Assembly (NCBI GenBank): GCA_963775685.1
Contig: CAVZJV010000014.1
Span: forward strand, 2,016,001 to 2,080,000
Direction of reading: 5' to 3'
DNA length: 64,000 nt
Source of the DNA: Candidatus Bathyarchaeota archaeon
GTDB taxonomy: Archaea > Thermoproteota > Bathyarchaeia > Bathyarchaeales > Bathycorpusculaceae
Below, in pieces: positions 5,443-39,718 of this stretch. Made by a program: the position numbers and the translations under genes. Each line of letters begins with the position of its first letter. Within the stretch, counting starts at the first letter, position 1. The notes beneath the pieces were generated by a model that worked only from the letters and a program-made list of their open reading frames with translations, was not told where the DNA came from and did no database searches.

Positions 5443-8028
5443 ATGCTGAAACTAAAAAATAAAACTATAGCTATTTTGATTGCAGCAATCTTGACAATTT
5501 CAATGAGCGCTTCAATAACACTACTGCCAAGCGCTAGTGCACATGACCCACCGTGGACGCTTCCAACATACTGTTTCATCAATATTGCTCCTTCTCCTAT
5601 TGGAGTTGGGCAGCAAGTTAACGTCAACTTCTGGCTTCAAGTGCCTCCACCAACAGCCGCCATGGCTAGTGGGGACAGATGGACAAACATGACCGTACTA
5701 GTCACGCATCCAGATGGAACAACTGAAACCTTAGGGCCTTTCTCATCTGATGACACTGGGGGATCACACACTGTCTATACGCCTTCAGTGGTTGGCAATT
5801 ACACTTTCCAGATGATCTTTGGCGGAAACACCCTACTAGGGCTAAACACGCCCAACGGACAGCCATCGACCAACCCGTTTGTCGGCGATTATTATGAACC
5901 CAGCAAAAGCAACGTATTCACCTTGCCCGTACAACAAGACCCAATTAGCTATGCACCCGTGATTTCACTTCCAACCGAATACTGGACGCGGCCAATCTAT
6001 GCCCAAAACAACGATTTATGGTATGCAATTGGTGGTAACTGGCTTGGTCTTGGAGTGTCAACGTTTGCAAACACTGGCCAATACAACGCTCAAGGAAGCT
6101 ATGCACCATACACAACTGCGCCAAACAGTGCTCACATTATGTGGACAAAGCCTATAGCTTTTGGCGGCACAATTGGAGGAGAATTTGGCAATGATCAACA
6201 AAGCAACTTCTGGTCAACTTCTCAGTATCAGCCAAAGTTTGCGCCAATCATCATTAATGATATGCTCTACTATACTATGTATCCTGGTTCTACTGCTAAT
6301 CCCGCGGGTTGGGCTGCTGTTAACTTGCATACTGGAGAGACAATTTGGACTCAAGACTATACAACTATTCTAAAGTGCGGTCAAATAATGGATTATTTAA
6401 CGCCTAACGAGTATGGTGCTAGAGCTTATCTGTGGGCTACTGGTTCGGTGCCTGGTGTGGTTTCGACTGGAACGACTTACAGTATGTATGATGCTATGAC
6501 GGGCAAATATATCCTTAGCATTGTCAACGGAACAGGTCTTAATTCTATTCAACTTGATGACTACGGCGGCTTAATTGGCTACTATGTTAACGCAAGCGGA
6601 ACTCAGAGATCGCTAACTGTATGGAACTCTACTAGGGCAATAATGCGCGGCGAAAACGGTAATGGCGATCCAAACGGCTGGCAATGGAGACCTCCGCAGG
6701 ACGGAGTGATAGCGTTCCAAAATGGAATAGAATGGTCCGCACCCATCGCAACAACAATTGATGGCAATTCTATAGCTCTAAGCCTTAGCGGCATCAACGG
6801 AGGAGTGGTACTTCTATCGTACGCAAGTGGGCAATCTGCTTACTTCCAGGGCGGATGGTATGTTGTAGCAGGATACAGTGCAGTTGACGGACATTTGCTT
6901 TGGGGACCAAAGAACCATACCGAAGTTGAGAATTCGCGTGTTCTTTTTGGCGCTGAAACTATGGGATATGGGACCTGGGTTGAGTTTGATTCTGCCGCAT
7001 TAACAGCAACAGGCTACAGCTTAACAACTGGTGACAAAATATGGGGACCAAAACCTATGCCAAACGTTAATCCTTTCACTTCGCTTGGTCAACGATACTG
7101 TCCAGGCCCTGATGGAACGATGCTTACTTGGACTTATGGCGGAGATGCTTATTCTATTGATATGGCTACTGGCACTTTTAACTGGGAATACCATGCGCCT
7201 TCGAGCGGTTATGAGTCTCCTTATGGCACTTGGCCATTTTGGACTTTTAGCGTTGGAACGGTTGCAGATGGCAAGCTATTTCTGCCGGTAGGTCACATGT
7301 ATAGTCCGCCGCTATTCCACCACGCACAACAAATGGCATTGAATCTCACCGATGGCTCTGTTGTTTGGAGTATTACTGCTTTTGACGTTACTAGTGCACC
7401 AGCTATCTCTGATGGTATTGCGGTTACGCTAAACGCTTATGACAATCAGCTATATGCATGGGGCAAAGGTCCAACCGTTACATCAGTGTCTGCACCTCAG
7501 GCAGCTATTGATTTAGGCCGATCGATTGTTATTAGTGGTACAGTTATGGATATCTCTGCAGGTGCATCGCAAGAAGTATCAGCCGCGCGCTTTCCTAATG
7601 GTCTTCCATGTGTTTCTGAAGCAAGTCAACAGACTTGGATGGAGTATGTTTACATGCAGCAGCCACGCCCCAACGACGTTACTGGGGTTCCTGTTTCAAT
7701 CGATGTAATTGACTCCAACGGTAATCTGCGTACCATCGGCACAGCTACAAGTGATGCAAGCGGCGCGTTTAGTTTCCAGTGGACTCCTGATATCGAAGGC
7801 AAATACACTGTTATTGCGACATTTCTGGGATCTGAGTCTTACTATTCGTCTTACTCTGAAGCTGCTTTCGCGGTTGATCCTGTTGCTACACCAACGTCTG
7901 CACCTGCTGATACTTTGCTTGGATTGGCGACAACTAATGATCTTTTGATGTACATGGCTGCTTCTGTGGTTGCTATAATCGTTGCCATTGCCATAGTTGG
8001 CATACTGCTGCTTAAGAAAAACCCCTAG
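5443..8028 (+). CDS. Large secreted, C-terminally anchored beta-propeller ('PQQ-binding-like') surface protein, paralog A
   Basis: Signal peptide, Ig-like N-domain, W-rich propeller repeats, conserved RFPNG..WMEYVY.Q domain, and a TM helix ending KKNP. Confidence 0.85.
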   Translation: MLKLKNKTIAILIAAILTISMSASITLLPSASAHDPPWTLPTYCFINIAPSPIGVGQQVNVNFWLQVPPPTAAMASGDRWTNMTVLVTHPDGTTETLGPFSSDDTGGSHTVYTPSVVGNYTFQMIFGGNTLLGLNTPNGQPSTNPFVGDYYEPSKSNVFTLPVQQDPISYAPVISLPTEYWTRPIYAQNNDLWYAIGGNWLGLGVSTFANTGQYNAQGSYAPYTTAPNSAHIMWTKPIAFGGTIGGEFGNDQQSNFWSTSQYQPKFAPIIINDMLYYTMYPGSTANPAGWAAVNLHTGETIWTQDYTTILKCGQIMDYLTPNEYGARAYLWATGSVPGVVSTGTTYSMYDAMTGKYILSIVNGTGLNSIQLDDYGGLIGYYVNASGTQRSLTVWNSTRAIMRGENGNGDPNGWQWRPPQDGVIAFQNGIEWSAPIATTIDGNSIALSLSGINGGVVLLSYASGQSAYFQGGWYVVAGYSAVDGHLLWGPKNHTEVENSRVLFGAETMGYGTWVEFDSAALTATGYSLTTGDKIWGPKPMPNVNPFTSLGQRYCPGPDGTMLTWTYGGDAYSIDMATGTFNWEYHAPSSGYESPYGTWPFWTFSVGTVADGKLFLPVGHMYSPPLFHHAQQMALNLTDGSVVWSITAFDVTSAPAISDGIAVTLNAYDNQLYAWGKGPTVTSVSAPQAAIDLGRSIVISGTVMDISAGASQEVSAARFPNGLPCVSEASQQTWMEYVYMQQPRPNDVTGVPVSIDVIDSNGNLRTIGTATSDASGAFSFQWTPDIEGKYTVIATFLGSESYYSSYSEAAFAVDPVATPTSAPADTLLGLATTNDLLMYMAASVVAIIVAIAIVGILLLKKNP

Positions 8029-8107: not shown

Positions 8108-8210
8108 GCTGAGTAGGCTCTGGACACAATTCACGATACAATAGCCGTAGTTATCGTGAAGAGCGTTTTGCATTTCGCTCTTTTCTCCTAATACGTTCCA
8201 GAACCTCAGC
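8108..8210. ncRNA. Structured repeat element, copy 1 (candidate regulatory RNA)
   Basis: Closing stem GCTGA..GGCTCTGGA / TCCAGAACC.TCAGC. Internal hairpins TTCACGATA/TATCGTGAA (8130-38/8152-60) and GAGCG/CGCTC (8161-65/8176-80). Homologous to 39560-39655. Confidence 0.7.
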
Positions 8211-14448: not shown

Positions 14449-15861
14449 ATGAAAACTCGCATTACTCTTGTGAATCCGCCATACCCTGCTGGATCCCACC
14501 AGCATCCACCCTTCATGCCCTTAGGCATCGGATACCTAGGCGCGGTTCTGGATAAGAATCATTTTAACGTTGACGTCATTGATTGTCAGGCACAAAAGAT
14601 CAGTCATCAAAAGTTTAAAGAAGAAATCGCCAAACGTAAACCAGACATAGTTGGCGTCACATGCACTACGCTAACATACAAGTCTGCTCTTAAAATCGTG
14701 AAATCATCGAAAGATGCCTTGCCCAACTGTATAACCGCCATCGGTGGTCCGCACGTTACCTTCTGGGATGACAAGGCACTGCAAGAAGCGCCCTCCTTAG
14801 ACGTTGTCATTAGAAGAGAGGGTGAACAAACCATGTTGGAGCTTGCTCAAAGAGTCGAAAATCACCAAGCATTCAACGACCTCGAAGGAACCACTTGCAG
14901 AAAAGGCGATGAAATAGTAAAGAACGAAGATAGGCCTTTCTTGGAAGACCTCGACAGCCTACCCTTCCCAGCGCTTCACTTGTGGGAAAAACTGGGGGAG
15001 CTGCGAAAATACGGAACAATCCCCTATCCAGTCATGACTAGTCGTGGATGCGTGTTCTGGTGTAACTTCTGCACTGCGGTTAGAATGTTTGGCAGAAAAT
15101 ACCGCATGCGCACCCCAAAGAACGTCGTTGACGAACTGGAATATCTGCACAAAAACTACCGGGCCAACCAATTCACCTTCTACGACGATGCTTTTACCGT
15201 GGATCAAGCAAGAACCGGAGAAATTTGCGATGAGATTCACCGTCGAGGACTAAAAATTAAGTGGGACTGTGAAACCCGCGTTGACATGGTTAGCAAAGAT
15301 CTTCTCGTTAAGATGAGGGAGGCAGGTTGCATTGCGGTTTGGTTTGGTGTTGAATCGGGCTCTTTGAAACAATTAACTAGCATGGGTAAAGGGTTCTCGC
15401 TTACGCAGACAAGACGCGCCTTTAAGTGGGCTAAAGAAGCAGGGTTGATGACAGTTGCAGGCGTAATTTTGGGTTTTCCAGGCGAAACAAGAGAGAGTGC
15501 TTGGGAAACAATCCGCTTCGTGAAGGAACTTAACCCCAACGACGTCGGCTTCTACATCGCCACACCTTATCCAGGAACACCCATGTATGAAGAAGTCAAA
15601 GCCAACGGCTCACTAAAAATAACCGACTTCGACAAGTACGACACCGCCACCCCAACCTTTGAAATTCCAAACCTAACCATGAAGGAACTCACCCAGATCC
15701 GAGAACAAGCATTCCAAAGCTTCTACCTCAGCCCCAGATACTTCATCAGCGCAATTGGCATGTTCAAGAAAGGAAAAATGTGGGGTCTTGGCGCCACACG
15801 ACTAATAATGGCACACTTCCGAAGAGCACTTATGGCGAAATTAACCAGCCCAACCAAATAG
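14449..15861 (+). CDS. B12-binding radical SAM protein (pair II-a)
   Basis: PLGIGYLGAVL, GGPHVTFWD, SRGCVFWCNFC, GVESG, TPYPGT. Confidence 0.9.
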   Translation: MKTRITLVNPPYPAGSHQHPPFMPLGIGYLGAVLDKNHFNVDVIDCQAQKISHQKFKEEIAKRKPDIVGVTCTTLTYKSALKIVKSSKDALPNCITAIGGPHVTFWDDKALQEAPSLDVVIRREGEQTMLELAQRVENHQAFNDLEGTTCRKGDEIVKNEDRPFLEDLDSLPFPALHLWEKLGELRKYGTIPYPVMTSRGCVFWCNFCTAVRMFGRKYRMRTPKNVVDELEYLHKNYRANQFTFYDDAFTVDQARTGEICDEIHRRGLKIKWDCETRVDMVSKDLLVKMREAGCIAVWFGVESGSLKQLTSMGKGFSLTQTRRAFKWAKEAGLMTVAGVILGFPGETRESAWETIRFVKELNPNDVGFYIATPYPGTPMYEEVKANGSLKITDFDKYDTATPTFEIPNLTMKELTQIREQAFQSFYLSPRYFISAIGMFKKGKMWGLGATRLIMAHFRRALMAKLTSPTK

Positions 15862-28148: not shown

Positions 28149-29534
28149 CTATTTCCTTCTAAGCTTCAGTTTAATATCGGCAAATAGGTTGGCTGCGAAA
28201 ATCAACGCGGTAGATACCTTGAACCTTCTTTTCTTATTCCAGAGAAATGCCCAGCGCAGATAATAATGATGGAATGCGCCTTCCCGCAGCTTGCCAAGAT
28301 CCTTCATGCTAAGCCAAGGCGTTTCAAATATGGGATGCGTGGTGTCGTACATGTCAAAGTCAGTCACTCTAAGCCATCCCTTCTCCTTGACCATATCGTA
28401 CATGGGAGTTCCCGGGAAAGGCGTTGCAACGTTGTAGAAGCCTACGTCGTCGGGAGCGATTTTTTCTACGAACTTGACGGTTTTCCAAGCACTCTTTTTG
28501 GTTTCGCCTGGGAAGCCCAAAATAACGTTCGGAACCGGTTTTAGGCCGAGTTCTCTGACCCACCCGAGTACCTTGATGGTTAATTCGGGGCTTATTCCTT
28601 TTTTCATTGCATCTAAAACTTGCTGTGTGCCCGATTCAACACCGAACCAAACAGTGATGCATCCCGCCTCCTTCATCTTTGCAAGCAGTTCCTTAGTTAT
28701 CATATCGACGCGTGTTCCACAGTTCCACTGAATCTTTAAACCTCGCTTTAGGATTTCACCGCAGAGTTCCTCAGTTCGAGGTTGATCAACCGTAAAAGCG
28801 TCGTCGCAGAAAGTAAACTTACTAATCCCATAAGTCTTGTGCAATACCTCTAATTCGTCAACAACGTTTTTTGGGCTACGCATGCGGTACTTTCGTCCAT
28901 GCATCCTGACTGTCGTGCAGAACTCACACCAGTACACACAGCCTCGGCTAGTTGTTAAGTACAAGACATCTTCGAGTTCGCGGAACTTCTCCATAGGCCA
29001 GAGGTGACGAGCTGGAAAAGGTAGCCTGTCTAGATCTTCAATGTAGGGCCTATCTGGGTTTTGCAGGATTTTACCATCTTTTCGGCATGTGGTGCCTAAT
29101 ACGTCGTGGTAGGGTCTTTCTGACTCTATCCTCTGCGCCAGCTCCAGCATCGTGTTTTCGCCTTCTCGGCGCACTATGATGTCTAATTCTGGGCATTCTT
29201 GGAGCGCTTGTTCATCCCAAAAAGTAACGTGGGGACCGCCAGCGATGGTTATGCAGTTTGGGCAAGTCTCTTTTGCAATCTTTACCAGTTTCATTGCAGA
29301 CTGGTATGTAAGTGTAGACGATGTAACCCCAACGATGTTTGGTTGACGCTTCGTAATCTCGTTCCTAAAATCCTCCGTTGAAAGCTTAAGCACTTGGCAA
29401 TCGACTACGTCCACTTTGTAGTTATTTTTCTCTAAGACCGCGGCTATATACCCTAAACCTAACAGTGCAAAGGGCATATGCATTGCGGCGCCAACAGGAG
29501 CGGATGGGTTAACCAAAGTTACATAGGGCTTCAT
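28149..29534 (-). CDS. B12-binding radical SAM protein (pair II-b)
   Basis: LGLGYIAAVL, GGPHVTFWD, SRGCVYWCEFC, GVESG, TPFPGT. Confidence 0.9.
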   Translation of the reverse strand: MKPYVTLVNPSAPVGAAMHMPFALLGLGYIAAVLEKNNYKVDVVDCQVLKLSTEDFRNEITKRQPNIVGVTSSTLTYQSAMKLVKIAKETCPNCITIAGGPHVTFWDEQALQECPELDIIVRREGENTMLELAQRIESERPYHDVLGTTCRKDGKILQNPDRPYIEDLDRLPFPARHLWPMEKFRELEDVLYLTTSRGCVYWCEFCTTVRMHGRKYRMRSPKNVVDELEVLHKTYGISKFTFCDDAFTVDQPRTEELCGEILKRGLKIQWNCGTRVDMITKELLAKMKEAGCITVWFGVESGTQQVLDAMKKGISPELTIKVLGWVRELGLKPVPNVILGFPGETKKSAWKTVKFVEKIAPDDVGFYNVATPFPGTPMYDMVKEKGWLRVTDFDMYDTTHPIFETPWLSMKDLGKLREGAFHHYYLRWAFLWNKKRRFKVSTALIFAANLFADIKLKLRRK

Positions 29535-29888: not shown

Positions 29889-29952
29889 AAATTAAAGGAG
29901 AAAGAAAAATGCAAAAAATAAAAAACAGAACTATGGCTATTTTGATTGTAGC
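29889..29952 (+). promoter_or_regulatory. Translation-initiation region of paralog B, matched by the two structured elements
   Basis: AAATTAAAGGAGAAAGA-AAAATGCAAAA-...-ACTATGGCTATTT-TGATTGTAGC: SD-like AAGGAG, the ATG and early codons. A TATA-like TTTTATAAA lies at ~29823. Confidence 0.65.
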
Positions 29953-32830
29953 AATTTTGACAGTTTCAATGACAACTTCAATATTATTAGCACCTAGTGC
30001 TAGCGCACATACGCCTGGATGGAATATTCCTACCTATGCATACATCGTTGCAGCACCTGACCCCGTAGGAGTCGGTCAAGAAGTACACATTTACATGTGG
30101 CTTGACCCCGTTTACGGAGTAGCAGGCGGATCTACTGCAGCCATTGGCACGAATGCTTCTACAGCTAGTGCAGCTTTGACAGCAAACTTTTACAGATTCA
30201 AAAACTACCAGCTCACAATCACAGCCCCTGACGGAACAACCACATCACAAACCTTTGCCACCATAACAGACACCACATCCTCACAATTTACCAGATTCGC
30301 TCCAGACCAAGTCGGCACATACACTTTCAACTTCACATACCCAGGACAAGTCTACGGCGAGAACGGCAACGGCTACGAAAACTCAATACTGATAGGCGAC
30401 TCTTACTTAGGTAGCACGGCATCTACAACTCTTACTGTTCAGCAAGATCCAATACCTGGGCCCTTAGGCAGCTCTCCGCTTCCAACACAGTACTGGACAC
30501 ACCCAATTTACGGCGAAGGCACAGACTGGTGGACAGTCTCCTCTGACTGGCTAGGTTCAGGATCACCCGTTCTAAGCGGCTATACCAGCAACAGGCTCTA
30601 CGTGCCCGACGGCATAGGACCTTTGACCTCTCACGTGATGTGGACACGTCCACTTCAGTTTGGAGGAGTTGTTGGAGGAAACGCATTTGTCGAGGGCGGC
30701 ACTAACCCCAACGGTGCAGTTCAAGGAGTCTCATACTTCGAAGGCAGCTCATACGAACCAAGATTCAGCAATCCAATAATAATCAGCGGCATTCTCTTCT
30801 ACACCGAAGTAATTTCCTTCACAGGTCCCAGCAGTGGACCAACCACGGCTGTTGATCTTCGTACAGGGCAAGTTCTTTGGTCTCGCACCGATGTGGCACC
30901 GCTTTCATTTGGCTATATCTACAATCTTTGGAATGGTGATCAACATGGAACTTTCCCGCCAATACTGTTCACATCCAACTTTGGCAGAGCTTATGATGCA
31001 TACACAGGCGAGCAGTTGTTTAACGTAACTGGTGTTCCTTCAGGCACCTCGGTGTCTGGTCCAACTGGTGAGCAGATACGTTATGTTATAAGAAACGCTG
31101 GCACAAACAATAATCCGCAATGGTATTTGTCTGAGTGGAACTCTAGCAAACTCTGGCAGTACGATGTCAACCCCTACACTGGCGGTGGAAGCTTTAACCC
31201 ATCCGTTATAAACGCAAGCAACCTGGTAATAATTTCAAATATTCCGGCTAATCCAAATACATCCGGCTCAGGCACGAGACCAACTTCAACCGGTGGAGTA
31301 TCTAACCCAGTTTATTATGGTGATACAATCGAAGTCAATGCAGACATTCCGATTAACATTACAACTATTGGAGGGCAACGCGGCGGAGTTGGTGTTGCCG
31401 GTCAAGGCATAACAACATACGACTGGAACTATTCACTACCCTGGCTAAACACAATGCCCCTAGCACCAACCTACAGCACAACAACAGGAGAAGTAACATT
31501 GCCACCTAAGGGATCAAATCCTGTATCGGTGATCGCAGCTAGCTATGGCGATGTGATGCTCTGCAGAAACGGCTCACTACCCGTTGGATATAAGGGAAAT
31601 AGCAATGGCGGCTTGCAGCTTCCTTACACGATGTTCACTGTTAACCTCAACGCCTCACGCGGAGCTGTCGGCTCGATACTTTGGATGAAAACATACGACC
31701 CCGTACAAGGCAACATCACCTACGCAAATGGCGCAGTCGATTTCCAGAACCGTGTCTTCTACTTTAACTATGAGGAAACACTCAATTGGGTAGCCTACAG
31801 TTTGGACAATGGCAACCTCCTATACACAACTCCGCGTCAAGCAGACTTTGACTACTACGGTGTGGGCAACACTATGCTAAGTGTTCCAGCTTACGGCAAC
31901 CTCTACACCAGCGGATTCTCAGGCACATGCTACGCATACAATATCGTAACAGGCCAACTGCAGTGGACATGGGGCAACGGCGGCGAAGGCAACAGCACAA
32001 ACGCTGGCCTATCTCTCTCATATGGGCATTATCCAACGTTTATTCAATCGATTGCTGGCGGTGTAATCTACTTGGCAACAAATGAACACACCATACCAAA
32101 TCCACTCTACAAGGGCACTACATATACTGCTCTTAACGCATCTACTGGCGAGTTGATTTGGCAGCTTTCTGGCTATCCCAGTGAGTGGTCTACTCCTGGT
32201 AGTGCTTGGGCTGTTGCAGACGGCTATTTGACATGCATGAACGGCTTGGATAACAACATCTACAGCATCGGCAAAGGACCCAGTGCAATGACAGTTTCAG
32301 CTCCAGACCTATCGGCAGCCTCAGGACAGGCAGTGGTGATACATGGCGCAGTGACGGATATTTCGGCAGGTACAAAGCAGAGCCAGCAGGCAGCAGACTT
32401 TCCAGCGGGTGTTCCAGTTGCAGCTGACTCTATCATGAAAGACTGGATGGGCTATGTCTATCAGCAGAAGGCGCTTCCTAGCAACTTTATTGGCGTTGAT
32501 GTTACAATAAATGTTGTTGATGCAAACGGAAACTTTAGAAGTATTGGAACAGCAACAACCGACTACACTGGCGCATATAATCTAGTGTGGCAACCAGACA
32601 TTTCAGGCACATACAATGTTATTGCTACTTTTGCAGGCACCAACGCTTACTGGCCATCATCTGCAACTGCGGCGTTTAATGTAATGGAGGAGCATCCGAC
32701 TTTATCGCCCTCGCCTACTCTGGCGCCGTCTATGTCTGATCAATACTTCCTACCGGCAATTGCAGGGCTATTTGTCTTTGTAGCTGTAATTGGCGTTGTC
32801 ATAATCTTAGTGCTAAGAAAACGGCCATAA
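29909..32830 (+). CDS. Large secreted anchored beta-propeller surface protein, paralog B
   Basis: Same architecture as 5443 (signal peptide, YWTHPIY, propeller, FPAGVP..WMGYVYQQ, TM helix ending RKRP). Confidence 0.85.
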   Translation: MQKIKNRTMAILIVAILTVSMTTSILLAPSASAHTPGWNIPTYAYIVAAPDPVGVGQEVHIYMWLDPVYGVAGGSTAAIGTNASTASAALTANFYRFKNYQLTITAPDGTTTSQTFATITDTTSSQFTRFAPDQVGTYTFNFTYPGQVYGENGNGYENSILIGDSYLGSTASTTLTVQQDPIPGPLGSSPLPTQYWTHPIYGEGTDWWTVSSDWLGSGSPVLSGYTSNRLYVPDGIGPLTSHVMWTRPLQFGGVVGGNAFVEGGTNPNGAVQGVSYFEGSSYEPRFSNPIIISGILFYTEVISFTGPSSGPTTAVDLRTGQVLWSRTDVAPLSFGYIYNLWNGDQHGTFPPILFTSNFGRAYDAYTGEQLFNVTGVPSGTSVSGPTGEQIRYVIRNAGTNNNPQWYLSEWNSSKLWQYDVNPYTGGGSFNPSVINASNLVIISNIPANPNTSGSGTRPTSTGGVSNPVYYGDTIEVNADIPINITTIGGQRGGVGVAGQGITTYDWNYSLPWLNTMPLAPTYSTTTGEVTLPPKGSNPVSVIAASYGDVMLCRNGSLPVGYKGNSNGGLQLPYTMFTVNLNASRGAVGSILWMKTYDPVQGNITYANGAVDFQNRVFYFNYEETLNWVAYSLDNGNLLYTTPRQADFDYYGVGNTMLSVPAYGNLYTSGFSGTCYAYNIVTGQLQWTWGNGGEGNSTNAGLSLSYGHYPTFIQSIAGGVIYLATNEHTIPNPLYKGTTYTALNASTGELIWQLSGYPSEWSTPGSAWAVADGYLTCMNGLDNNIYSIGKGPSAMTVSAPDLSAASGQAVVIHGAVTDISAGTKQSQQAADFPAGVPVAADSIMKDWMGYVYQQKALPSNFIGVDVTINVVDANGNFRSIGTATTDYTGAYNLVWQPDISGTYNVIATFAGTNAYWPSSATAAFNVMEEHPTLSPSPTLAPSMSDQYFLPAIAGLFVFVAVIGVVIILVLRKRP

Positions 32831-36931: not shown

Positions 36932-39484
36932 ATGAAAAATAAAATGAAATATAGCAAAATATTTGCAACCTTGATAATATTGGCTTTTATGATTTCAATC
37001 GTTCCAATAACACAAGTTAAAGCACAGACAGCAGTAACTACATTAAAAACCTACCCAGTGTGCGATGCTGTTCCAGACCCGGTAGGTCTCGGACAGGACG
37101 TACTGGTAAAATTCGGAATTCTACAGCAGGCAGGCGCCGTTGAGCAAGGCTGGACGGGTGTAACTGTAACTGTTGTTAAACCTGATAACACCACAGAAAC
37201 ACTTGGGCCATTCAGAACAGATTCAACAGGGTCATCCTTTACATTATACACACCTGACCAAGTTGGCACATACTACTTAACGACACACTTCCCTGAACAA
37301 ACAAACCCCGTTGGCTTCTTCAGCTATGAAGCAAATGTGTTCATAGCCGAAGGCACGATAATGGCAGCAAGTACTAGTGCAACTGTAACCCTTAATGTAC
37401 AGCAGGAACCTTTGACGGATTATCCAGGGCATGCTCTTCCAACAGAATACTGGACTCGACCAATTGATGACCAGCTTAGGGAATGGTATTCAATCTCAGG
37501 AAACTGGGTTGGCGTACCTGACGCTAACAATAATTATTGGGTAAGCAATGGTCTCTACAACGATGATGCGCCAGAAACTGCTCACGTTCTATGGGCAAAC
37601 CCATTGACTACAGGCGGATTAACCGGAGGCCTAATAGGCGACCCGTTAGTTCCAGCAGGCTCTGAAACAGGCGATGCATACGAAGGCAAATTCCCAGGAT
37701 CAATAATATTGAATGGAATACTCTACTACCAGCGAACAGACACAAGAGCTGAACAAGCACCAGCAATAATTGCAGTAGATCTACACACTGGAGAACAATG
37801 GATGTTCAGAAACAATACTGTACTATCATTCGGTCAAATCTTCTACTTCAACAGCTACAACTCTGACGGAGTATTCACTTATGTCTGGTCAGTATCTGGC
37901 AGCACTTATACCGCATATGATCCATTCACCGGCAATCAGCAAATAGAAATTAAGAACGTACCTTCTGGCGTTAGAACATACGGTCCAAGCGGCGAGATCC
38001 TCATTTACATAATGGACTACACAAACGGATGGATGGCTCTCTGGAACTCAACCGATTGCGGACTTCAGAATGCAGTTATCGGCACTCCTGATTACGGCAG
38101 CTGGGGCAACACAGCTCACGGAACCGCATTGGGACCCGGATTAGACGGCGCAAACCCAAGATGCATCACATGGAACGTATCTATACCCGCAGGATTATCA
38201 GCTAGCACTTCATTCTTCGCACCAATATTGAAGGTCTATCCCGATAGAGTAATGTCCATGGTCTTCAATCAATCACAAGTCGAAGTATGGGCATTAAGTA
38301 CAACCGCAGGTTCAAGAGGACACTTATTATTCGACAAAACCTGGCAAGCACCAGCTGAATGGGTAGAAGGTTCCAACACTATAAACTATGTTGGCGCAAC
38401 TAGCCAAGTCGCAAATGGCGTTATCGCCTTATGGGACAAAGAACTACAAAAACACTATGCGTTCAGTACAGAAACTGGCGATTACCTCTGGCAAACAGAC
38501 TCTGAAATCTACTTAGATGCTTATGGCTGGGGCAACGCAGAGCACACATGGTACTTCGCATATGACCACTTGTATTCAGTCGGCGTTGGCGGAATAGTCT
38601 ATGCTTACAATCTCGCAACAGGCCACACAGATTGGACTTATGCAATGTCAGATCCATATAATGAACCTGTAACAGGCGAGAACTGGTGGGGCTGGATAGA
38701 TCTAATTACAGATGGAAAAATCTATGTCGGCACACTAGAGCACTCCGCTGAGAATCCAATACCACGTGGCGGACCCTACATATGTCTTAATGCAACAGAC
38801 GGCTCTGTTATCTGGCGAGTCAACGGAATGTTCCGAGAAACCCGCTGGGGCGGTAACGGAATCATCGGTGACAGCATCATAACTACAATGGACACATATG
38901 ATCAAAGAGTATACGCAATCGGCAAAGGTCCAACCGCCATTACGCTTGCAGCTTCACCGAAGGTTTCAGTAGAAGGCAGCAGCATTTTAGTGGAAGGCAT
39001 GGTAACTGACACTTCTCCAGGCACAGAGAAATACGCTGCTACATCAAGATTCCCGAACGGTGTTCCAGCAGTTTCAGACGAAAGCATGAGCGATTGGATG
39101 CTATACGTATACAAACAGTTTGATCGTCCAAACAATGCAACTGGCGTTTCAGTATCCATAGATGTTTTAGATGCTAACGGCAACTTTAGAAACGTCGGCA
39201 CAACAACAAGCGACTCTACCGGTTCATATAGTTTCAGTTGGATACCTGACATTCCAGGAAAATACACAGTTTTCGCTACCTTCGCTGGCTCGAAAGCTTA
39301 TTATGCATCATCAACTGAAAGCGCCTTCGTTGTCGACGTAGCACCACAAGCAACCGCAGCACCAACTGAACATCCAGCATCTATGGCTGATCAGTACTTC
39401 CTGCCACTATCAATTGGTATGATATTGGCAATAATAGTCATCGGCCTAATCCTTGCACTTCTGCTGCTAAGGAAACGACCATAA
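36932..39484 (+). CDS. Large secreted anchored beta-propeller surface protein, paralog C
   Basis: Same architecture (LPTEYWTRPI, RFPNGVPAVSDESMSDWMLYVYKQ, TM helix ending RKRP). Confidence 0.85.
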   Translation: MKNKMKYSKIFATLIILAFMISIVPITQVKAQTAVTTLKTYPVCDAVPDPVGLGQDVLVKFGILQQAGAVEQGWTGVTVTVVKPDNTTETLGPFRTDSTGSSFTLYTPDQVGTYYLTTHFPEQTNPVGFFSYEANVFIAEGTIMAASTSATVTLNVQQEPLTDYPGHALPTEYWTRPIDDQLREWYSISGNWVGVPDANNNYWVSNGLYNDDAPETAHVLWANPLTTGGLTGGLIGDPLVPAGSETGDAYEGKFPGSIILNGILYYQRTDTRAEQAPAIIAVDLHTGEQWMFRNNTVLSFGQIFYFNSYNSDGVFTYVWSVSGSTYTAYDPFTGNQQIEIKNVPSGVRTYGPSGEILIYIMDYTNGWMALWNSTDCGLQNAVIGTPDYGSWGNTAHGTALGPGLDGANPRCITWNVSIPAGLSASTSFFAPILKVYPDRVMSMVFNQSQVEVWALSTTAGSRGHLLFDKTWQAPAEWVEGSNTINYVGATSQVANGVIALWDKELQKHYAFSTETGDYLWQTDSEIYLDAYGWGNAEHTWYFAYDHLYSVGVGGIVYAYNLATGHTDWTYAMSDPYNEPVTGENWWGWIDLITDGKIYVGTLEHSAENPIPRGGPYICLNATDGSVIWRVNGMFRETRWGGNGIIGDSIITTMDTYDQRVYAIGKGPTAITLAASPKVSVEGSSILVEGMVTDTSPGTEKYAATSRFPNGVPAVSDESMSDWMLYVYKQFDRPNNATGVSVSIDVLDANGNFRNVGTTTSDSTGSYSFSWIPDIPGKYTVFATFAGSKAYYASSTESAFVVDVAPQATAAPTEHPASMADQYFLPLSIGMILAIIVIGLILALLLLRKRP

Positions 39485-39559
39485 AAACAATCCACTACAA
39501 ACAACTCTTCCCTTTTTTTAGTCTCAACATCTTTTAGAAAATTTGAAGAACAGGTAGGG

Positions 39560-39655
39560 GCTGAGAAGGCTCCGGCAACAATTAACGAAATAGCCATAGT
39601 AAAAGAGCTTTTGCATTTTCGCTCTTTCTCCTTGAATTTAGTCCAGAGCCTCAGC
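39560..39655. ncRNA. Structured repeat element, copy 2 (candidate regulatory RNA)
   Basis: Closing stem GCTGA..GGCTCCGG / CCAGAGCC.TCAGC. Hairpin AAAGAGC/GCTCTTT (39602-08/39621-27) with loop TTTTGCATTTTC. Homologous to 8108-8210. Confidence 0.7.
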
Positions 39656-39718
39656 AAATCCAAACACAAAAACAAAAGCGTCAATTGGCTTCCTAACTAA
39701 CTTATGGTTTCTTCTGAC

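Follow-up and report, generated by a model that had tools for sequence, protein, structure and literature searches.

In the icaR mRNA of Staphylococcus aureus, the 3' untranslated region (UTR) pairs with the 5' UTR through an anti-Shine-Dalgarno (anti-SD) sequence (PMC3868564), and an interaction of the 5' and 3' UTRs has been reported for hbs of B. subtilis (PMC5737220). In rice, a miniature inverted-repeat transposable element (MITE) located in a 3' UTR is reported to repress translation (PMC5338036). The sequence considered here, positions 39560..39655 on the minus strand of a 64,000-nucleotide (nt) window (the whole stretch of DNA that was analyzed, from a Candidatus Bathyarchaeota archaeon), is the core of one copy of a previously undescribed structured module that occurs in many copies in certain Bathyarchaeia and has a core of about 95 nt. 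If read on the strand of the surface-protein gene behind which it lies (the gene strand), the module would in its working be closest to the anti-SD control exerted by the icaR 3' UTR. As described there for icaR and hbs, a downstream sequence is complementary to the SD sequence of the message, and on the gene strand the module holds both an anti-SD and an anti-AUG segment. Unlike in the case of icaR, we are dealing with a structured module of ~95 nt that is repeated behind 20-30 paralogs, that matches the family consensus without preferring the start of its own gene, and that lies beyond the oligo-T tract of that gene. It moreover contains a self-complementary pair of SD-like and anti-SD segments and has an archaeal host.

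Bacterial genomes hold families of intergenic palindromic repeats such as REP/BIME, ERIC, and the Correia elements of Neisseria, and in appearance the module seems closest to these. The likeness comprises many copies of ~100 nt with inverted ends, a position in 3' flanks that often lie between convergent genes, the ability of both strands to fold, a copy number that varies among relatives, and the lack of an own transposase. In contrast to those repeats, the module accompanies a single gene family and keeps the same orientation throughout, it contains a copy of the start site of that family and changes with this site from lineage to lineage, its internal hairpins covary, and neither a target duplication at its borders nor a Y1 transposase in the genome was seen. 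The module does not show the full set of defining features of either icaR-type control or the palindromic repeat families.

Two further groups invite comparison. The attC sites are marked by RYYYAAC ... GTTRRRY core sites and belong to a cassette array next to intI/attI. Like the attC sites of chromosomal integrons (for example, the VCRs of Vibrio), the module is an imperfect-dyad repeat of a kind spanning ~60-130 nt, with extrahelical bases, that stands behind each gene and whose structure outlasts its interior sequence. The arms of the module (GCTGAGGCTCTGG / CCAGAGCCTWCTCAGC) differ in that they are without RYYYAAC/GTTRRRY boxes, and the genes concerned are 2.6 kb long and dispersed rather than arrayed by an integrase with attI, while the interior consists of start-site sequence. 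Transposon-derived RNAs of Sulfolobus reportedly pair with the 3' UTR of an mRNA. With multi-copy "sibling" or transposon-derived antisense small RNAs the module has in common that small RNA genes would be repeated, with a conserved scaffold, target-pairing segments, and a possible mobile or duplicated origin; it differs in that ~30 copies are present in a genome and each is physically linked to a gene of the presumed target family.

A repeated element that resembles the family's start site

The stretch first drew attention through its likeness to the start of gene B (973 amino acids (aa), 29909-32830, plus strand), whose initiation region and first 14 codons, with the ribosome-binding site (RBS) and the ATG at 29909, occupy 29889..29952 on the plus strand. 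The minus strand of 39560-39655 reads GCTGAGGCTCTGGACTAAATTCAAGGAGAAAGAGCGAAAATGCAAAAGCTCTTTTACTATGGCTATTTCGTTAATTGTTGCCGGAGCCTTCTCAGC, and its comparison with 29889-29952 gives four matching blocks (16/17, 11/11, 13/13, and 8/10) separated by fillers of 3 and 8 nt in the element, the latter standing against 13 nt in B; the strings and counts given in the preliminary description for this match were reproduced from the sequence. When the 96 nt were aligned by the Smith-Waterman method to 5,352 candidate ATG starts from the whole genome (mean score 16.0, sd 3.7), the 11 best distinct matches were all starts of paralogs from one gene family, with B second at a score of 51. A whole-genome BLAST search (E < 0.01) returned, apart from other copies of the element, only the start of B and that of one other paralog. 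The likeness of the stretch to the family starts is far beyond chance. It had been described as the second copy of an element aimed at paralog B: the real, repeated, and structured element stands, while the number of copies is about 30 and what they resemble is the start consensus of the family.

Covariance model R1, built from 22 copies of the host genome (3.06 Mb, 14 contigs, 96.9% complete), scores the stretch at 130.1 bits, the second-best value in the genome, and its minimum free energy (MFE) fold has the hairpin P2 enclosed by the closing helix P1. The core of the other copy in the window, at 8108..8210 on the minus strand behind gene A, scores 123.4 bits. In the host genome, ~24 copies are full and another 6-8 are partial, and they are spread over contigs C5, C9, C10, and C14; nhmmer gave 30 matches at E < 1e-5 and the covariance model 32 matches at E <= 0.01, 23 of which were at E <= 2e-10.

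Bathyarchaeia are abundant in soils, peat, and sediments and are essentially uncultured. The close relatives of the host genome are metagenome-assembled genomes of Bathyarchaeia from soil, peat, and fen, and in a sample of 41 relatives the covariance model matched 21 of the 24 that belong to the same genus, as well as one genome of another family, so that the element is not the one-off inverted duplication that had been named as a possible refutation. Copy numbers in relatives are minima, as at most 19 candidates per genome were scored, and range from 0 to >19 among species of one genus. In an even sample of the order, 36 of 151 genomes and 7 of 63 genera were positive, with the genomes falling into the taxonomic families f1 (17/35), f7 (17/35), and f6 (1/25), none in the other nine (0/55), plus the host genome itself. 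Rfam release 15 (4,227 families) had no match at the gathering score in the 64-kb window, and around both window copies only chance-level matches were obtained (E 0.4-8, best 0.43), far under the gathering scores. In word searches of the open-access literature, neither an account of a comparable element from Bathyarchaeota or any other archaea nor a paper on regulatory RNAs that mentions Bathyarchaeota came up. The covariance model can be used to annotate this new structured element, which has hundreds of copies across two taxonomic families.

Predicted structure

The anatomy is read on the minus strand of the window, hereafter the element strand, and pair counts refer to 53 copies from 23 genomes aligned to the covariance model. 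In order, the element strand consists of GGGUUU, the 5' arm of P1 (GCUGAG GCUCUGGA), the junction J1/2 with SD-like purines (..AUAGGAGAAAAG), P2 with the loop AAAUGCAAAA, P3, the junction UUAGUUUUA, the 3' arm of P1 (UCCAGAGC-CUA-CUCAGC, with a 3-nt bulge), and CCC, after which a pyrimidine-rich tract, 10-30 variable nt, ACUAAAAAAGGGGAAAG, and about 20 nt lead to the stop codon of the convergent gene. In the copy at 39560-39655, the 5' arm GCUGAGGCUCUGG (39643..39655) pairs with 39560-39575, and the cells of P1 are 86-96% paired over the 53 copies. The 3' arm at 39560..39575 reads CCGGAGC-CUU-CUCAGC, and its 3-nt bulge, apparent from both sequence and fold, is also present in the distant copies of genome G040. 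The SD-like AAGGAG of J1/2 (39628..39633; CUCCUU on the plus strand) matches the RBS of paralog B. In the predicted folds, P2 (39602..39627) has the stem AAAGAGC/GCUCUUU and the loop GAAAAUGCAAAA at 39609-39620, with the AUG at 39614-39616; the start-codon block displayed in this loop is AAAUGCAAA, and the stem around it covaries. The folds agree with the earlier proposal that the extra GCG/GCTC bases of the element, relative to the start of B, build this hairpin and place the AUG (on the other strand, the anti-AUG) in its loop. The P3 region (39577..39600) contains ACUAUGGCUAUU, which equals codons 8-11 of paralog B with a 13/13 match to 29930-29942, and the pyrimidine-rich tract behind P1 (..CUGUUCUUC.., 39541..39559) is complementary to the SD-like junction. 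All these features lie on the minus strand.

Modelled partners are paired in 89.8% of the cells, versus 29-53% when the partners are slid. Changes on both sides with pairing kept were observed at 10 of the 18 modelled pairs, values that were reached in 0-1 of 500 shuffles, and at 6 of the 8 inner pairs of P1. The compensatory changes in P1 come from other genomes (e.g., GCUUCAU/AUGAAGC), none being found within the host genome alone. RNAalifold recovers P1 unaided; on a plain MAFFT alignment of the host-genome copies it gave nothing useful, with the hairpins out of register, and the structure was imposed by hand and then refined through the covariance model. The P2 stem occurs across subfamilies as GAGC/GCUC, GAGG/CCUC, GAGCG/CGCUC, and ACGC/GCGU, always with pairing kept, and in other copies the block of codons 8-11 stands in the loop of a hairpin whose P3 stems are CACGAUA/UAUCGUG, GGUGA/UCACC, or CAGUG/CACUG. 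Conserved unpaired blocks are the SD-like tetramer in J1/2 (48 of 53 copies), AATGCA (38), and CTAYGGM (13). Homologs lacking the loop sequence would have spoken against the preliminary description, and the loop block AATGCA is kept in the said 38 copies over 23 genomes.

A fourth pairing may form between the SD-like tract and the complementary pyrimidines behind P1, for example GGAGAAAAG with CUUUUCUCC, and apparent compensation was noticed by eye (GAGGAAAG with UUUUCCUC; GGAAG with UUUCC). The duplex is stronger than with shuffled tails (mean z -1.42 over 51 copies), which is suggestive of a pseudoknot or an alternative fold. A K-turn, bulge-helix-bulge, hammerhead, H/ACA, or C/D motif was also considered for P1 and the junctions and dismissed, as the defining motifs were missing by eye.

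Coding potential of the loop AUG

The AUG in the loop of P2 raises the question of a small protein gene on the minus strand, either the precursor of a ribosomally synthesized and post-translationally modified peptide (RiPP) beside radical-SAM genes or a type I toxin. The two window copies would encode the peptides MQNALHDNYGYCIVNCVQSLLSPF... and MQKLFYYGYFVNCCRSLLSPY..., which differ at third positions and by a 9-nt indel and share the coding-like pattern MQ..YGY..VNC..SLLSP, and the copy behind gene A follows B12-radical-SAM and SPASM genes. Over the 53 copies, in contrast, the ATG at the loop position is missing in 8, the open reading frames (ORFs) starting there run from 4 to >35 codons with no common peptide beyond MQ, the frame through P1 differs among copies (QSLLSP, TRAFSA, SRALSAP), and the neighboring gene on the element strand varies. 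The small-protein, RiPP-precursor, and type I toxin readings were therefore rejected for want of a conserved ORF, and we give a small protein hardly any probability; the element is non-coding. Without the covariance model the element would be mis-called as small ORFs, since a 97-aa ORF (TTG start, 39391-39684, minus strand) and a 30-aa ORF (loop ATG, 39614-39524, minus strand) overlap it and, in antisense, gene C at its 3' end. These two ORFs are artefacts of the element and of the antisense gene end.

The interior follows the start sequence of the lineage

The sequence of the model equals the family-consensus start GGAGAAAAGAAAAATGCAAAA. Subfamilies of the element in the host genome hold different pieces of the 5' end of the family, one of them ACTATGGCTATTT and another TTTTGATTGCAGC..CTTCAACAGTT (compare gene A, 5474-5500). 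In genus g16, which belongs to another taxonomic family, the elements carry GAAGGTGAAAAAATGAAAAAAC and CTACTATCAC, and the start of a g16 family gene, cgaaggtgaaaaaATGAAAAAAC, is identical to the element's GAAGGTGAAAAAATGAAAAAAC over 22 nt. The g16 element folds as a rod, with its AUG block pairing with UUUUUCAUUUUU inside the element and P1 retaining the 3-nt bulge. Elements and family starts of genus g18 likewise have GCCAAATAAAGG and ATAGGAGAA in common. As judged from these sequences, the element has in its interior a reworked version of the family's initiation region that tracks the start sequence of each lineage. A non-coding module that contains the translation start site of its attached gene family, and that co-varies with this site between lineages, represents a rare pattern.

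The family starts themselves show a related peculiarity. The first ~15 codons are near-identical in nucleotides among many paralogs (ATGCAAAAAYTAAAAAATAAAACTATGGCTATTTTGATTGC; 29909-29970 and 5443-5510), the proteins being 40-60% identical. These near-identical 5' ends point to either concerted evolution or selection on the mRNA sequence itself.

An inverted copy of a start site could also serve as a substrate for recombination at the DNA level, such that elements and family 5' ends would recombine, by a site-specific or homologous route, and thereby invert genes or promoters or exchange 5' ends, bringing about a shufflon- or inverton-like phase variation of the surface coat. Inverted homology between elements and family 5' ends exists in blocks of 11-22 nt, the genome has 19 matches to tyrosine recombinases, of which two are no more than 1.5 kb from an element, the homogenization of the cores described below would fit, and in tandem arrays (locus L179) the element and the start of the next gene flank the promoter region of that gene. 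The homology blocks are nevertheless short and interrupted, and the start of the own gene is not the one most alike to its element. The interior has the same orientation in 53/53 copies, with the SD-like block beside the 5' arm, and no rearranged variants were seen among the aligned copies. Furthermore, only 8 of 24 copies face any gene start, two of those (one gene) a family-like start, and the compensatory pairing in P1, P2, and P3 would have no role in such recombination. We consider this explanation improbable. With the uniform orientation and the lack of preference for the own start, the DNA-level switch between element and own gene start that had been raised beforehand likewise found no support, and a cis pairing or inversion with the gene's own start was discarded for the same lack of preference (ranks 1-14 of 14). 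The preliminary description was right that the start of gene C matches its own element loosely, as it ranks 5th of 14 starts.

Association with one family of surface proteins

The module is tied to one family of secreted, membrane-anchored surface proteins. The proteins have 850-970 aa and comprise a signal peptide that ends near AHTPPW, a PQQ-like beta-propeller, an Ig-like domain, and, at the C-terminus, a membrane helix with LLRKRP as its last residues. Gene C (36932..39484, plus strand), behind which the stretch lies, encodes an 850-aa paralog with a signal peptide, both domains, and the LLRKRP helix; gene A (5443..8028, plus strand) encodes an 861-aa paralog of the same family. Of 30 places examined in the host genome, 21 have an ORF with the C-terminus of the family that ends 12-30 nt beyond the tail described below, 17 of these ORFs having at least 800 aa and 4 being shorter stop-to-stop ORFs; 4 places have broken family remnants 46-94 nt away, and 5 are without any family gene. 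The core always stands in one inverted orientation, 20-50 nt beyond the oligo-T tail of the gene. With gene C as query (E <= 1e-20), the protein family was found in 44 of 151 genomes, all in f1 and f7, and 34 of the 36 element-positive genomes have a family gene, the two exceptions being weak element matches.

Some family genes are broken into short stop-to-stop ORFs (C14:658403, C14:661676, C14:747821, and C9:2836; loci L050, L058, L054, and L053), and the elements beside them still score highly. These genes are frameshifted or decayed paralogs, or assembly errors.

The tail of gene C, CCCTTTTTTTAGT (39510..39522, plus strand; ACTAAAAAAAGGG on the minus strand), resembles an oligo-T terminator, is nearly invariant in element-bearing flanks, and belongs to the gene flank outside the core. 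What appears as an A-run/GGGG tail of the element is the gene's own oligo-T tract, which is also found behind core-less family genes in the host and in element-free genomes. Another candidate is a purely structural 3'-end module that would terminate transcription in both directions or, as a hairpin between convergent units, stop 3' exonucleases, the start-site likeness being incidental. A bidirectional intrinsic terminator is a hairpin preceded by an A-tract and followed by a U-tract, so that either strand has a U-tract behind the hairpin. The element does lie between the oligo-T tail and the next unit, with 13 of 24 copies between convergent genes, both strands fold, and on the element strand the stable closing helix is followed by T-runs in 26/52 copies versus a background of 8.4%. 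However, core-less family genes have the same oligo-T tail, T-runs after P1 on the gene strand are near background (7/52), and the conserved loops and the lineage-specific copy of the start site would be left unexplained. In addition, archaeal termination needs oligo-T only. Little probability thus falls to a structural module of this kind.

Functional strand and possible role as a regulatory RNA

Which strand would be functional was addressed by several comparisons. In the closing helix of both window copies there is one G.U pair on the minus strand that is C.A on the plus strand; this was confirmed by reading, as was the position of both copies between convergent genes on either side. The argument for the minus strand drawn earlier from these pairs does not hold over the 53 copies, in which P1 contains 25 G.U versus 26 A.C and favors neither strand. 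The MFE of the whole core is lower for the element strand in 23 copies and for the gene strand in 29 (p = 0.10), again favoring neither. The MFE of the P2 window favors the gene strand (27 versus 13; p = 0.03), whereas the SD:tail duplex favors the element strand (31 versus 20; p = 0.016). The element strand is also favored by T-runs of at least 5 within 30 nt after P1, with the counts given above. The upstream neighbor on the element strand is convergent for 13 of 24 copies, tandem for 8, and absent for 3, so that the family gene is the only constant neighbor and hence the only constant source of transcription, with the T6-7 tract in between. The conflict of strand clues seen at the outset persists, as folding both strands and counting G.U and A.C pairs reveals no consistent preference, and we regard the gene strand and the element strand as about equally probable.

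We favor, tentatively and at somewhat less than an even chance, the reading that the element is a regulatory RNA module of the surface-protein family that acts through pairing with, or mimicry of, start sites. The module would exert its effect as RNA through its start-site sequences. In a gene-strand form, read-through past the T6-7 tail would yield an anti-start-site RNA. Its anti-SD, anti-AUG, and anti-codon-8-11 segments would be presented by a three-way junction and could cover the SD and the AUG in mRNAs of the family. As elements show no preference for own starts, this form would amount to translational control across the family rather than control of the own message. In an element-strand form, the module would act as a decoy of the start site, with the anti-SD tail of the module masking its SD. 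In either form, concerted evolution or mobility would keep the cores alike and in step with the family start sequence. It is further conceivable, if unlikely, that the control is self-referential, with the module of an expressed member dampening or excluding translation of its 20-40 siblings. In such a system every member would carry, behind its terminator, an RNA module that shows the RBS and start codon of the family, or their complement. Set against families that undergo antigenic variation, this would be an archaeal, RNA-based counterpart of mutually exclusive expression.

A number of observations weigh against a regulatory RNA. The start of the own gene is not the best match of an element, own-gene ranks being spread over 1-14 of 14, and in the comparison with own starts the sense orientation scores 20.5 versus 16.6 for the reverse-complement control. 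The strand tests contradict each other; upstream on the element strand, the P1-anchored alignment showed no positionally conserved promoter, A/T peak, or motif, and on the gene strand the conserved T6-7 tract separates the gene from the element. The covariation was counted on a model-fitted alignment among related copies. Ten of the 44 family-positive genomes are without the element, which is therefore dispensable for the family. The identity of cores and that of their flanks is uncorrelated (Spearman -0.04; Mantel 654/1000), based on 18 of ~24 full copies. Finally, in genome G153 the closest homolog of gene C (74% aa identity) keeps the distal spacer and the tail and is without the core and the proximal pyrimidine tract; this filled/empty comparison comprises one pair, does not extend to the upstream border, and would be explained just as well by a deletion. 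The uncoupled likeness of core and flank and the core-less orthologous site fit a mobile repeat equally well.

Homogenization or movement of the cores

Cores have a mean identity of 0.61 (maximum 0.93) and the adjacent 450 nt of gene ends one of 0.63 (maximum 0.74). The core at 39560-39655 is 93% identical to that at C14:2300188, with gene ends that are only 64% identical. The cores have been homogenized by concerted evolution or have moved independently of the flanking genes. None of 80 loci in other Bathyarchaeia that are syntenic for the neighboring aminotransferase holds an element, which makes gene C together with its element look like a lineage-specific insertion or rearrangement. In the one flank that was read (L099, 2629-3729), the aminotransferase ortholog is directly followed by a gene on the same strand that putatively encodes an aldo/keto-reductase.

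Such data bring a selfish palindromic repeat similar to MITE, REP, or Correia elements into consideration, with the P1 arms as terminal inverted repeats and spread or conversion among the 3' flanks of the family. We hold this to be unlikely, yet still the main competitor, and assign the same standing to its corollary that the start-site-like interior is a captured fragment kept similar by ectopic conversion without a host function. Terminal inverted repeats are indeed present, as the P1 arms (14 bp and a 3-nt bulge, flanked by GGG(UUU)/CCC) are kept in 53 copies, and likeness drops sharply outside of them. The near-identical cores beside dissimilar gene ends, with no overall correlation, the retained distal flank without a core behind the closest homolog of gene C, the element-free aminotransferase loci, and the copy numbers that vary within one genus all fit a repeat of this kind, as do tandem doublets in g18, the equal folding of both strands, and the balance of G.U and A.C in P1. 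On the other hand, 25 of the 30 host places lie behind a family gene or remnant in a single orientation, whereas insertions of a MITE would be dispersed over unrelated contexts and in both orientations. No target-site duplication was seen by eye at the borders of the 53 copies, and the genome has no match to Y1_Tnp or to the TnpB zinc-ribbon domain, in a search that did not extend to DDE families. Nor was a longer parent element seen, the two half-copies leading into no ORF. Moreover, P2 and P3 have covarying stems around loops that are conserved, in each of three lineages the interior goes with the start sequence of that lineage, and the P1 sequence is near-identical across two taxonomic families. 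The question raised is thus whether archaea use RNA to coordinate large families of surface proteins or whether a mobile repeat became specialized on the flank of one family, and either answer would be new for archaea. The remaining probability belongs to an explanation not thought of here.

The tandem doublets are found at loci L199 and L201 of genus g18, where two elements stand ~130 nt apart behind one family gene. The half-copies (C14:2279153-2279309 and C14:655475-655631) consist of the P1 5' arm, the junction, and the start of P2, followed by unrelated sequence, and may be products of recombination or deletion. The 19 tyrosine-recombinase matches belong to the Phage_integrase family, and the two that lie <1.5 kb from an element are at C14:823509 and C14:1176485.

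Neighboring genes

Genes with Lrp/AsnC-type helix-turn-helix-like N-termini are located on the element strand 400-600 nt from the element at C14:791793, C14:1896438, C14:2312602, and C14:72938, and similar genes occur at L180 (3817-4788) and L181 (5588-7563). The window contains at least 4 radical-SAM genes, including two B12-binding ones at 14449-15861 (plus strand) and 28149-29534 (minus strand). A 324-nt inverted repeat (15037-15360 / 28629-28952) with 73% complementarity falls within this B12-binding pair, and the two genes are old paralogs.

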